From the NCBI GenBank assembly GCA_027451365.1, contig DAIDJN010000077.1, positions 1 through 28,209 of the forward strand: a DNA stretch of 28,209 bases. Reading direction: 5' to 3'. Under the pieces are notes generated by a model. It was not told where the DNA came from. It saw only the letters and a list, made by a program, of their open reading frames with translations, and did not search any database. Shown here in pieces: positions 17,628-28,068 of the stretch. Each line of letters starts with the position of its first letter. Position 1 is the first letter of the stretch. This DNA comes from Phycisphaerales bacterium. Lineage in GTDB: Bacteria; Planctomycetota; Phycisphaerae; WQYP01. Position numbers and translations under genes: made by a program.

Positions 17628-19100
17628 ATGAAGCGGGTCATGTACGGGCGTTATTGTGCGTTCAGGATTGCTGGCTCCATGGCATTGAATTTGACTATTT
17701 TGACTTTTTCACAGGTACCCCTTTCCCCGGCCGCGTGGCTGGCTGTTGCCGCGGCGGTCATTCTGGGATTGGTGGTGATGATGGCGGTGGGGGGGTGGCG
17801 GCGGCGCTATATTTACAAACGGATGATTGAAACTCTTGAAGCGATGGACCGCGGCGGCGCGGCCCGTAAGTTGCATCTGCTGGAAGCTGGCGAACTTGGC
17901 CAGATCGGGCGTTTAATAGATTCGCTATCCGTGGTGGGTGCCGCGGAACGCGAGCATATGCGGAGGCAAGGCAGTTGCCTTCAGGCGCTCCTTGCCGGAT
18001 TGGAACAGCCAGTGCTTGTTGTCAATATGGAAGGCAACGTGGAACTGGCGAATCCCCGTGCCACGGAAATTCTATCCGTTTCACCTGATTCACCAAACAG
18101 TGTGACCGGCGGCTTCGGTGAACTTCTGCGGAATTCCCAGATTGTCGAATTAATGCAGTTGGCAAAATCAGGCCACGCGCCTCCGGTGCGACAGGTTCGC
18201 TTGAACATGCTCTCGGGGATGCGCACCATGCGTGTTTCCATTCGGCCGATTCTGGAGGAAAAAAAGATAACGGGTCTGTTGCTTCTTCTGGATGACCAGA
18301 CCGATTTTATTCAAAACACGCAGATCAAGGCGGATTTTGCCGCCAATGCCAGTCATGAACTCCGAACGCCGCTGGCCAGTATTCGCGCCGCAGTGGAAAC
18401 AATTAATGAAACCGGGTTGGAAGAAGCGGAAATTGTTCGCCGCTGCCTCAGCATCATTGAAGGCCATGTTCTGCGGCTGCAACTGCTGGTGCAGGACCTC
18501 TTGGATCTATCCCGCACGGAAGACCCCCGCGCGCTTATTCGAACCGAAGAAATTGACCTGGAAGAAGTCCGTCCGGTTATTCTGGATATGTTCGGCTCGC
18601 TTGCCGCGGATAAAAATCTGGCCCTTCGATTCATTATCGCGCCCGACGCCCGTATCATGCGCGGTGATGAACGGCTGATCATGCTGATTCTCAAAAATCT
18701 CATCGATAACAGTCTTAAATTTACCGCCACTGGATTTGTCGAAGTCCGCTGGCGCCGGCAGATGCGGGCCACACTTCTGCCCGCCGTGCCAGCCGAAAAT
18801 TCGTTGCATTCTCAACCCCGACTCCCGGGCACAGTGGAAGTGCTCGTGCTGGAAGTTCAGGATACCGGTTGCGGCATACCCGTTGAAGATATTCACCGGG
18901 TTTTTGAACGGTTTTATACAGTCAATCGCAGCCGGGGGGGAGCCGATAGGGGCACAGGCCTGGGCTTGGCTATCGTCAAACACGCCGTTGCGGCCATGGG
19001 GGGAGCGGTGGAACTTGACAGCCAACCGGGCGTTGGAACTACAATGCGCTGCCTGTGGCCTATCGCGCAATCCGCCGTGACGAAAGCCGGCCCCACATGA
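17628..19100 (+). CDS. PhoR-like sensor histidine kinase (TM, PAS, HisKA, HATPase)
   Basis: H box ANASHELRTPL, N box NLIDNSLKF, G1 DTGCGIP, F box VFERFY, G2 GTGLGLAIVKH, and PAS-like VLVVNMEGNVELANP. The start may be 17679. Confidence 0.9.
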   Translation: MKRVMYGRYCAFRIAGSMALNLTILTFSQVPLSPAAWLAVAAAVILGLVVMMAVGGWRRRYIYKRMIETLEAMDRGGAARKLHLLEAGELGQIGRLIDSLSVVGAAEREHMRRQGSCLQALLAGLEQPVLVVNMEGNVELANPRATEILSVSPDSPNSVTGGFGELLRNSQIVELMQLAKSGHAPPVRQVRLNMLSGMRTMRVSIRPILEEKKITGLLLLLDDQTDFIQNTQIKADFAANASHELRTPLASIRAAVETINETGLEEAEIVRRCLSIIEGHVLRLQLLVQDLLDLSRTEDPRALIRTEEIDLEEVRPVILDMFGSLAADKNLALRFIIAPDARIMRGDERLIMLILKNLIDNSLKFTATGFVEVRWRRQMRATLLPAVPAENSLHSQPRLPGTVEVLVLEVQDTGCGIPVEDIHRVFERFYTVNRSRGGADRGTGLGLAIVKHAVAAMGGAVELDSQPGVGTTMRCLWPIAQSAVTKAGPT

Positions 19101-25580: not shown

Positions 25581-26552
25581 TTAACCGCCACCGCCGAAAT
25601 AACCAATCGCGATGCCGGCCAGAAATACCAGCACACCGCCGATAAAAACAGTTCGGAAGGATTGCCAGAGCGGGGTATCCATATATTTAAAGCGAATCCA
25701 GCTGATCGTCATCAGTTCAAGAAACACCACGATAATGGCAACGGTCAGGGCCACGTGGTATTGCGGTATAAGAAAGGGAAGCGTATGCCCCAATCCGCCG
25801 CCTGCGGTCATTAACCCGCAGACGGTTCCGCGGGCCAGCGGATGGCCGCGGCCGGTTAGCGCGCCATCGTCGGACAAAGCTTCGGCAAAACCCATGGAAA
25901 TGCCCGCACCCACGGAAGTGGCAAGGCCCGCCAGAAAAGCCGGCCATGTGCTGTGGCTGTACAGGGCCACGGCGAAGATCGGTGCGAGTGTGGAAACCGA
26001 ACCATCCATAAGACCGGCAAGGCCCGGCTGGACGATTTGCAGCACGAAAAGCCGCCGCCGGGCTTCGTCCTCTTGTTTGCGAACGCCAGGGGTCAAATGT
26101 TCTTCCTGCAGCATGGCGGAGACATCGGAGTGCTTCCGTTCAGCTTCGGCCAGATCGGTCAGCAGCGTGCGGATGGCGGCATTGGAGGTTAGTGCCGCTG
26201 CAGTTTCATAAAAGCGGCTGGTTTCAAGTTCCATTATTTCCGCCTGCTGCCGCATGGCCTTCAATCCCAGTTTCAAAACCAGCCAGGTCGGGCGCCGGTT
26301 GATAAAGCCGCGGACATCTTCCCGCTTAATCATCACTATGTGTTGACCAAAATGCTGCACATAAAGTTCCGTCAGCCGGCGGCGGTGTTCAGATTCCTCT
26401 TTTTGCATTTCCTGGAAGATTTTCTGTGATGCGGGAAAATCTGTCCCCAAAGCCGCCGCAAATTCTGCATAAATTTTGCTGTCTTCTTCTTCCTGTTGTA
26501 TGGCCAACGCCAGAATTTCCCGCTCGGTCAGGTCTTTAAATTTTTTCGCCAT
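25581..26552 (-). CDS. mbfA: Membrane-bound ferritin / iron exporter MbfA (rubrerythrin-like N-domain plus VIT1/CCC1 domain)
   Basis: LALAIQQEEEDSKIY, EESEHRRRL and EAERKH di-iron motifs. QPGLAGLMDGSVSTLAP and GAGISMGFAEALSDDG VIT1/CCC1 motifs. Confidence 0.92.
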   Translation of the reverse strand: MAKKFKDLTEREILALAIQQEEEDSKIYAEFAAALGTDFPASQKIFQEMQKEESEHRRRLTELYVQHFGQHIVMIKREDVRGFINRRPTWLVLKLGLKAMRQQAEIMELETSRFYETAAALTSNAAIRTLLTDLAEAERKHSDVSAMLQEEHLTPGVRKQEDEARRRLFVLQIVQPGLAGLMDGSVSTLAPIFAVALYSHSTWPAFLAGLATSVGAGISMGFAEALSDDGALTGRGHPLARGTVCGLMTAGGGLGHTLPFLIPQYHVALTVAIIVVFLELMTISWIRFKYMDTPLWQSFRTVFIGGVLVFLAGIAIGYFGGGG

Positions 26553-26904: not shown

Positions 26905-26979
26905 CGGGGCGTAGCTCAGCTTGGCTAGAGCGCTTGGTTCGGGACCAAGAGGTCGCAGGTTCAAATCCTGTCGCCCCGA
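26905..26979 (+). tRNA. tRNA-Pro (anticodon CGG), CCA not encoded
   Basis: Acceptor stem CGGGGCG/CGCCCCG, D arm GCTC...GAGC, anticodon arm CTTGG-TTCGGGA-CCAAG and T arm GCAGG-TTCAAAT-CCTGT. Confidence 0.96.
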
Positions 26980-27128
26980 TTTTGGCCAAGGGCCAAAATA
27001 GAGCAGGAGTTTTGAGAGAGTAGATAGTAGAGCAAAATTCGGCTGGGACAAAAGCGTGGCTGTCGCCGAGACACAACGCGACTCCTGCGGTCTATTTTCG
27101 ACTTTCTACTTTCAACCGCGGTGAACAG

Positions 27129-27209
27129 ATGGCCTTCGCCTCTGGAAAGCTGAGCCGGGTAACAAGCATTTTTTTGCCAGCCGGCAAAAAAATAGAGCAG
27201 GAGTTTTGA
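27129..27209 (+). other. 26-codon mini-ORF MAFASGKLSRVTSIFLPAGKKIEQEF, a truncated copy of the four-helix-bundle gene start
   Basis: ATGGCCTTCGCCTCTGGAAAGCTG versus gene start ATGGCCTTCGCTTTTGAAAAACTC. Translation is not shown. Confidence 0.4.
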
Positions 27210-27322
27210 GAGAGTAGATAGTAGAGCAAAATTCGGCTGGGACAAAAGCGTGGCTGTCGCCGAGACACAACGCGACTCCTGCGGTCTATTTTCGACTTTC
27301 TACTCTCAACCGCGGTGAACAG

Positions 27323-27403
27323 ATGGCCTTCGCCTCTGAAAGGCTGAGCCGGGTAACCAGCATTTTTTTGCCATCAGGCAAAAAAATAGAGCAGGGGTTT
27401 TGA
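27323..27403 (+). other. 26-codon mini-ORF MAFASERLSRVTSIFLPSGKKIEQGF, second truncated copy of the gene start
   Basis: Exactly 194 bp downstream of the first mini-ORF. Its N-terminus resembles MAFAFEKL of 27528..27890. Confidence 0.4.
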
Positions 27404-27527
27404 GAGAGTAGATAGTAGAGCAAAATTCGGCTGGGAAAAAAGACTTGCTGACGCACACAAAGACAACGCCACCTGCGGTCTATTTTCGACTTTCTACTTT
27501 CAATCCCAGAGCAATTATGGAGCAATA

Positions 27528-27890
27528 ATGGCCTTCGCTTTTGAAAAACTCATCGTCTACCAGAAAGCCATTTCCTACGGCGACTGCATTTGCGCCATAA
27601 CCGAAAAGTTCCCGCGCGGCTACGGCTTCCTTTCCGACCAACTCAACCGCGCATCCGTTTGCATCACCGCCAATATTGCCGAAGGCAATGGACGCTTTAC
27701 AATTCCTGATCGTAAAAACTTCTTCATGATTGCCAGAGGCTCCGTGCAGGAATGCGTGGCGCTAATGGAAATCGCTTTCCGCCGCAAATTGGTGGCCGCA
27801 GACGCCCATTGTCGACTCCGTTCTGATCTGGAAGAAATTTCCAAAATGCTCTCCGGACTGATCAACGGCTTGGAAAACCGAAAAGCGTAG
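27528..27890 (+). CDS. Four helix bundle protein (TIGR02436 / 23S rRNA intervening-sequence protein family, Avd-like fold)
   Basis: FEKLIVYQKA, FP, LSDQLNRASVCITANIAEGNGR, FFMIARGSVQEC and ISKMLSGLI family motifs. RBS GGAG at 27519-27522. Confidence 0.92.
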   Translation: MAFAFEKLIVYQKAISYGDCICAITEKFPRGYGFLSDQLNRASVCITANIAEGNGRFTIPDRKNFFMIARGSVQECVALMEIAFRRKLVAADAHCRLRSDLEEISKMLSGLINGLENRKA

Positions 27891-28068
27891 GGAGAATTTT
27901 CCGCTAGGCCCTCCGCGCGATCGCCGCTGCATACCTTGTCATCGCCTTGTTCGGCCGGATATCAATCCACTGCTCAATCGGTACTCTATTCATACGTCGA
28001 AATGATACCCGACAAGGCGCAGGGGATTAACCCTCATCCCCCGAACCCCCTTCTCTCTCTTCTCCCTC

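Follow-up and report, generated by a model that had tools for sequence, protein, structure and literature searches.

The tandem array downstream of a tRNA-Pro gene in the window, by which we mean the whole 28,209-nt stretch of Phycisphaerales DNA that was analyzed (contig C77 of the 4.06-Mb source genome, G000), probably consists of three stacked heads of one cassette, a likely mobile unit that many Planctomycetota carry at tRNA and tmRNA 3' ends; the 194-bp period of the array is likely a local by-product. The 5' edge of the cassette is the discriminator base of the tRNA, single copies predominate, the leader covaries and the gene is conserved. Co-transcription of tRNA and cassette is plausible.

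Organization of the array

The tRNA-Pro(CGG) gene lies at 26905..26979 on the + strand (ARAGORN; Rfam RF00005) and does not encode CCA. Its discriminator A (26979) doubles as the first base of head hairpin 1, and the sole tandem array that TRF detects in the window is placed at 26995-27503, with a period of 194 and 2.6 copies. Each unit is ordered as a near-perfect hairpin, a 7-mer purine arm, a variable core, the motif CGGTC, a pyrimidine arm and a start codon, which opens an intact gene in unit 3 and a decayed 13-codon stump in units 1 and 2. All of these features are on the + strand. In unit 1, head hairpin 1 (26979..26999; 21 nt, 9 bp, 3-nt loop), whose outer pair joins the discriminator A to T26999, is followed by leader 1 (27000..27115), comprising the 7-mer-repeat purine arm (27000-27035), the variable core, the invariant CGGTC (27088-27092) and the pyrimidine arm (27091-27113), and then by gene stump 1 (27129..27167), a degenerate version of the first ~13 codons of the four-helix-bundle gene. 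Unit 2 consists of head hairpin 2 (27168..27193; 26 nt, 11 bp), leader 2 (27194..27309), which has one difference from leader 1, and a second degenerate stump (27323..27361). Unit 3 begins with head hairpin 3 (27362..27387; 26 nt) and continues through leader 3 and a spacer (27388..27527), with GGAG in the spacer ahead of the start codon, into the intact four-helix-bundle gene (27528..27890; 120 aa; TIGR02436/PF05635). The core of leader 3 differs from those of leaders 1 and 2 and is nearer to copies on contigs C60 and C63 of the same genome, and its helix P1 (see below) is weaker.

Aligned to the 5' end of the gene, the stumps give a local score of 41, whereas random 45-mers from the window reach 35 at most (0/3000 reach 41). 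The frame of stump 1 continues into hairpin 2 to form a 26-codon mini-ORF, and the junction of stump and hairpin 2 carries ATTT, as does codon 15 of the intact gene. Because their start codons open either the gene or its stumps, the units are heads of a cassette and not separate RNA species.

An earlier note on this sequence described an exact 194-bp period beginning at the discriminator. Counted from the discriminator the period is inexact, the heads being spaced by 189 and 194, since the hairpin of unit 1 (26979-27167; 189 nt) has 21 nt rather than the 26 nt of units 2 and 3. In the 26995 register the divergence given in that note was reproduced: units 1 and 2 differ at 6/194 positions and unit 3 differs from unit 1 at 16/121, 15 of them within 27049-27083. 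The core of unit 3 does have the same length as its counterpart, but aligning the two needs a pair of compensating 2-nt gaps. We likewise detected no terminator-like or promoter-like site on the + strand between the tRNA and the gene. Among the sequencing runs listed as containing this sequence, none was of RNA.

The array is flanked by further features. A gene for the iron exporter MbfA (25581-26552; NF045676 above cut-off) is divergent from the tRNA. The stretch that follows the cassette gene (27891-28068) is degenerate and common to loci in G018, G002 and G170, and its - strand resembles the start of a decayed gene. The two contig ends (1-141 and 28069-28209) carry a 141-bp repeat in inverted orientation, with a further copy at G000:C69:3946-4086; the repeat is probably the end of an insertion sequence, at which the assembly broke.

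Hairpin, leader and gene across copies

Among 103 distinct hairpins, defined by position alone and including those of genome G284 (flagged unpublished), 99 are symmetric and 80 perfect; the pairs comprise 1014 Watson-Crick, 12 G-T, 8 A-C and 11 other pairs. The 12 G-T pairs against 8 A-C show no G-T bias that would indicate a strand of action and are compatible with RNA or DNA. Hairpin sequence and loop vary freely across copies, and the outer pair tracks the discriminator, being A-T after Pro, Ala, Val and His and G-C after Ser, Gln and Asp; where CCA is encoded, the hairpin pairs it with TGG. Copies at different anticodons within a single genome have hairpin sequences in common (G020, G019, G183, G282 and G156). 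Two candidate roles for the hairpin were rejected. In the window a T-run precedes it and an A-run follows, which is terminator order reversed, and GNA, expected of GNA-type DNA mini-hairpin loops, occurs in 5/28 distinct triloop entries and its reverse complement in 3.

The leader spans ~115 nt and carries complementary 7/8-mer arms. Helix P1 joins the first bases past the hairpin to bases around CGGTC (in leader 1, 27003-27010 with 27081-27088), and helix P2 is an alternative and longer pairing between the two repeat arms. For covariation analysis, 171 leaders were de-duplicated at 80% identity to 98. Pairs 1-6 of P1 are Watson-Crick in 87-97 of these 98 leaders, against maxima of 48-91 in shuffles that ignore relatedness, and 689/784 P1 cells (88%) are Watson-Crick compared with 18-46% in slid controls. 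On a 56-row alignment made up of the three window units and 53 of the 98 leaders, 93.3% of P1 cells are paired (slid controls, 37-63%), with six pairs showing two-sided changes and a result reached by 0/500 shuffles, again ignoring relatedness. Covariation had been proposed as a check on the units, and P1 supplies it in single-copy leaders. RNAalifold independently selects P1, which has a slight G-U excess, and arm type (7-mer or 8-mer) is concordant between the two arms in 66 of the 69 unambiguous leaders among the 98. At equilibrium P1 dominates in 4/66 leaders, at a median penalty of 14.7 kcal/mol, and P2 wins, so that P1 would be transient, protein-held or part of a pseudoknot. A translational switch between P1 and P2 was tried and rejected, the computed accessibility of the start region being 0.45 when free and 0.445 with P1 forced (66 leaders). 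Folded singly, a unit does no better than its own shuffles (z -0.79). An Rfam scan of the window and 20 related loci returned no leader family, and only tRNA and tmRNA reached gathering scores.

The gene at 27528-27890 scores above both curated cut-offs, for TIGR02436 (83.2 vs 24 bits), in agreement with its earlier assignment to that family, and for PF05635 (90.5 vs 33.8 bits). To our knowledge this large family has no known function. The encoded protein has a pI of 8.9, and members of the tRNA-tail group are mostly 55-87% identical. Its closest solved structure is PDB 2GSC (E 7e-12), described as a homopentamer (PMC4990558). With dN 0.015 and dS 0.44 (dN/dS 0.03) relative to the C63 paralog, and dN/dS of 0.08-0.14 against its three closest relatives, the cassette gene is under purifying selection (dN/dS about 0.03-0.14); the dS of 0.44 further indicates that the copying which made the C63 paralog was not recent. 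Among 76 heads that follow a full tRNA, 22 have a full gene, 22 a partial gene and 26 none, and 6 are cut off. A single-protein query of IMG/VR found no relative.

Distribution, stacking and probable mobility

Elsewhere in the source genome, one copy follows tRNA-Pro(GGG) on C60 and another, on C63, follows a paralog of 91% identity; C71 and C74 hold others, and weak leader copies lie on C34 and at C63:44759. Contigs C60 and C63 both break inside a cassette, and we infer that C60 continues into C63. A pattern combining the tRNA-Pro end, the spacer and the start of the arm matched 66/301 class genomes, G284 included, and its reversed control none. Homologous units beside tRNAs or four-helix-bundle genes, which the earlier note proposed to look for, are thus present both within this genome (C60, C63) and across the class. 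The tRNA-Pro(CGG) gene carries a head in some genomes of the family and lacks one in others. In a GTDB-wide scan with the pattern, the named records among the matches listed were mostly from Planctomycetota, with some chance matches outside.

Since the tRNA-Pro pattern itself demands a tRNA end, a protein-first search was added. In the best 80 metagenome loci it returned, a full tRNA lies within 700 nt upstream in 43, the contig is too short in 18 and ARAGORN finds none in 19, i.e. a full tRNA in 43/62 informative loci. These tRNAs represent eight amino-acid types (Pro 27, Ala 8, Arg 2, Gln 2, and His, Met, Asp and Ile), and the hairpin is present at the tRNA end in 41/43. About 10 of the 19 loci without an ARAGORN tRNA show, by eye, tmRNA ends, att scars or tRNA fragments. 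Rfam confirmed a tmRNA target at L331, L334 and L343, and weakly at L318, and another locus (L278) follows tRNA-Val(CAC); overall, the targets are tRNAs for at least ten amino acids and tmRNA. At L347 the cassette lies within a co-oriented tRNA cluster, a placement that suggests read-through.

In 250 phylum genomes, relatives of the protein form a close group (at least 51% identity; 12 fetched loci besides G000) and a distant one. All 12 close loci have both arms upstream of the gene (read by eye, with one cut by the contig start), and 8/12 have a tRNA end and hairpin within the 330 nt inspected (Pro, Val, Ser). No leader was seen at L289, a 5'-truncated piece with 54% identity. Of the distant members (at most 46% identity), 15/15 tree rows from the phylum sample lack an upstream tRNA, and most have arms that flank the gene. 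One distant four-helix-bundle gene in the source genome (G000:C59:81000-81900) has a long array of TCTTCTG-type heptamers on either side, both in one orientation, with the complementary array ahead of them. In G307 a distant family member is present at least 17 times, mostly with an in-frame TGA, which may reflect either a multi-copy decayed element or another genetic code.

Some copies depart from the usual layout. G019 has at least five near-identical leader-only copies (L051-L055) dispersed among other repeat arrays, and three that were inspected showed no adjoining tRNA or gene. At G000:C71:42410-42586 a head and leader are followed by a tRNA-Pro 3' half, which is downstream rather than upstream; ARAGORN found no tRNA-Pro(TGG) in the G000 assembly. 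A different, ~145-nt palindromic element (L062:2680-2830; L017:1215-1513; L281) duplicates the tRNA-Pro 3' end, is tandem in G015 and is closer to a classical tRNA-linked repeat.

Across the fetched loci, G284 included, 138 heads with 700 nt or more of downstream sequence are single, against 14 multi-head clusters, some of them leader-only doublets, with spacings of 63-590 nt. As heads are mostly single and their spacing is this variable, the 194-bp period is likely a local by-product. An independent 254-bp array in G020 has 35-codon stumps and a TTT junction. At 11/111 gene ends another head begins directly, and 1-5 nt are often shared there with the tRNA end; judging by these junctions, the cassette probably has the discriminator as one boundary and roughly the stop codon as the other, and stacks of cassettes may decay by microhomology deletion. 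The alternative offered in the earlier note, a small non-autonomous element inserted repeatedly at the tRNA 3' end, is largely upheld, by way of insertion or duplication; the gene itself belongs to this element, and the units represent the element's 5' ends. Real as it is, the array is most likely a by-product.

Evidence for movement comes from the relationship between proteins and targets. Near-identical cassette proteins occur at tRNA-Ala and at tmRNA (supports 100 and 97), and the Pro label changes at least four times on starred branches, in a quick tree of 120 columns that does not resolve the tRNA-linked group as one clade. No pair of loci with the same flanks, one with and one without the cassette, was found; at tRNA-Pro(CGG), downstream sequence differs among genomes and gave no clean pair. 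In five genomes no tyrosine integrase, serine recombinase or reverse transcriptase was tied to the cassette, and our searches found no cassette-linked integrase, transposase or reverse transcriptase. PF07508 has no match in G000 (93% complete), RVT_1 has none in G183 or G282, and no recombinase gene abuts the tRNA in the window. A lone 295-aa reverse transcriptase (PF00078; L406:2238-3122 on G000:C18) is unlinked to the cassette.

Large serine recombinase islands (PF00239 + PF07508 + PF13408; G003, G183, G125) share the tRNA-Pro site with the cassette and sometimes displace it, sometimes bracket it. Unlike these islands, the cassette encodes no recombinase, and the att scar is absent from most copies. 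An att-scar motif, consisting of a 16-nt flank and the last 14 nt of the tRNA, was found in 17/251 class genomes; its opposite strand reads RGD[RW]TP[IV]ELF and continues large serine recombinases that abut tRNA-Pro and end in RGDRI. In G003 a complete island with a 507-aa serine recombinase sits at the tRNA and the cassette lies beyond its far att site, 17.7 kb downstream, a position that indicates passive displacement. Heads flank both sides of att-bounded cargo in G013, G010 and G277, and at L133, L325 and L384 a cassette stands alone between att-like ends. Minimal units of head, gene, tail and att occur at L133/L231, L325, L384 and L319, and in G000 across the proposed C60/C63 join. A recombinase tail lies close behind the gene at only 4/111 gene ends, which makes the recombinase a side route. 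A displaced tRNA 3' core with a recombinase tail is present after the C63 paralog and absent from the window up to the contig end, 319 nt past the gene; the window units also lack the 14-bp att core, and the att scars observed all had tRNA-Pro or tRNA-Ala cores.

Several observations concern the islands themselves. The tRNA-Pro large serine recombinases (L386:1227-2747 and 18932-18959, equivalent to G003:C6; L390; L391; L014) have a C-terminus that spans attP. The integrated frame ends in RGDRI-stop at the tRNA, with the tail, reading RGDRTPIELF..., left at the opposite end of the island, so that integration truncates the recombinase. Similar tails with tRNA-Ala cores are found at L325 and L384. 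Small att-bounded blocks of cargo that are stacked at tRNA-Pro (L407:268-938; L408:177-821) include a RelE-like/HTH pair and a nuclease-like ORF (named by eye), and G125 has three tandem att scars 1.5-3 kb apart (L127:9476-14072).

Proposed mechanism, alternatives and known systems

These observations can be accommodated by the following model. The cassette would be transcribed from the tRNA promoter, and its hairpin would stack on the acceptor stem and mask the discriminator or CCA until processing. In the leader, the short helix P1 may form first, followed by P2, the stronger pairing between the arms; the protein, basic and pentameric, would bind the 7/8-mer repeats of its own leader. New copies would enter at the tRNA end, on the left via sequence common to tRNA 3' halves and on the right through 1-5 nt of microhomology just past the stop codon, so that stacks of the form head-gene-head arise; copies that lie between serine-recombinase att sites could in some cases move as satellites. 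In the window, a head-gene-head-gene pair may have undergone a deletion from ATTT at codon 15 to the ATTTT that opens the next head, removing most of the first gene, after which the stump would have decayed and leader, stump and hairpin would have been duplicated once.

A rather unlikely alternative is that tRNA, leader and gene form a vertically inherited host operon, gene-converted through shared tRNA 3' halves and moved only passively by islands, with the array a neutral slippage duplication. Strong purifying selection on the gene, the passive displacement of the G003 cassette, the lack of any linked mobility enzyme and junction microhomologies that suit slippage all agree with such an operon. 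Against it stand targets that include tRNAs for at least ten amino acids and tmRNA, with near-identical proteins on different targets, the patchy distribution (12 fetched loci of at least 51% identity among 250 phylum genomes), the many heads with a partial gene or none (22 and 26 of 76), and heads on both sides of att-bounded cargo (G013, G010, G277). It is doubtful, too, that the array is a functional RNA array, in which tandem leaders cut from the tRNA precursor titrate or scaffold the protein. The covarying leader, the recurrence of tandem heads in 14 clusters (leader-only doublets included) and the missing terminator between tRNA and gene would fit, and the tRNA-linked repeats of Escherichia coli, as described in PMC8144298, include transcribed, protein-binding members. 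The earlier proposal that the array supplies multiple RNA sites as a conserved system is nevertheless at odds with 138 single heads vs 14 clusters, spacings of 63-590 nt, unequal and decayed coding stumps within the units, and a lone unit that folds like its shuffles.

We consider it highly improbable that the cassette is mainly a satellite, itself non-autonomous, of large serine recombinases that target tRNAs, with the order att core, head, gene, cargo and recombinase tail. The RGD[RW]TP[IV]ELF scars that continue recombinase bodies at the tRNA, and the minimal head-gene-tail-att units (L133/L231, L325, L384, L319), are what such a satellite would produce; the rarity of tails near gene ends, the missing 14-bp core in the window units and the restriction of scars to tRNA-Pro and tRNA-Ala cores, when the cassette targets far more, are not. 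Finally, an assembly artefact, a concern raised in the earlier note, is extremely unlikely. Cassette repeats do break contigs elsewhere (C60 and C63), and no contig among those listed covers the whole array. The units are nonetheless unequal, differing at 6 and 16 positions, contigs of sequencing runs X1 and X2 (one study, possibly the source of the window) cross from stump to hairpin at 27361/27362 and extend 31 nt or more to either side, and G020 has an analogous array. Stacked heads of a likely mobile cassette thus remain our preferred reading.

Several known systems resemble the cassette in part. RNase III excises 23S rRNA intervening sequences. Those bearing an ORF (S23p) are described as encoding a PF05635 protein, with heptamer repeats upstream of the ORF (PMC4990558). 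The cassette shares the PF05635 family, the 7/8-mer repeats upstream of the ORF and a stable-RNA transcript (predicted here), and works like such an intervening sequence moved to tRNA tails, but departs from it in location and architecture. It follows tRNA or tmRNA rather than lying in rRNA, with no rRNA match at the window; both of its arms are upstream of the gene and none follows the stop, whereas the repeats of intervening sequences, as described there, enclose the ORF; and it carries two extra elements, a hairpin that pairs the discriminator and a further helix, which covaries, around CGGTC. Generic four-helix-bundle cassettes (L288-L305; at most 46% identity) share the family, the 7/8-mer purine/pyrimidine arms and an accessory distribution, but their arms mostly flank the gene with no tRNA upstream, whereas in the tRNA-tail group the arms form a 5' leader tied to tRNA 3' ends.

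The tRNA-linked repeats of E. coli are reported as tandem units directly 3' of a tRNA gene, the last 18-19 bp of each matching the tRNA 3' end exactly (PMC8144298). Window units are similarly tandem and directly downstream of a tRNA gene, but unlike the repeats described there they terminate in a gene stump, belong to a protein-coding cassette as its heads and leave no second tRNA end in the array. Avd, the accessory protein of diversity-generating retroelements (DGRs), is described as a basic protein beside a structured non-coding region (PMC10053308), and the window protein belongs to a homologous fold family and is likewise basic and next to a structured non-coding region. Unlike in a DGR, no reverse transcriptase is nearby (the sole RVT_1 match of G000 is on C18, and the window contig ends 319 nt past the gene) and there is no template/variable repeat pair: the repeats are non-coding, and differences between units 1 and 2 lack adenine specificity, with 2/6 at an A of unit 1. 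The Gut-1 RNA motif (RF01706; PMC2864571) gave no Rfam match to the cassette leader in the window and 20 related loci. We found no description of a tRNA-tail cassette in the open literature, searched at abstract level.

A more speculative and quite improbable possibility is a tRNA-end-homing element with an RNA intermediate. Processing of the tRNA would release an RNA that is exact at its 5' end, where the hairpin lies, and ragged at its 3' end; the pentamer of the Avd family would bind the leader repeats and recruit a reverse transcriptase in trans, and the copy would be inserted at tRNA or tmRNA 3' ends, the newest beside the tRNA. If true, such a route would explain why the 5' edge is exact, why 3' truncations vary and how stop-to-head junctions arise, and the orphan PF05635/TIGR02436 family would gain a function.

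The array itself is the least important part of the finding. The tRNA-tail cassette gives the PF05635/TIGR02436 family a defined, covarying candidate ligand and a fixed promoter context, together with sharp sequence rules, in that the hairpin must pair the discriminator or CCA and CGGTC is invariant, and binding, processing and mobility thereby become directly testable. In Planctomycetota, a cassette without an enzyme of its own occupies tRNA and tmRNA 3' ends alongside recombinase islands.
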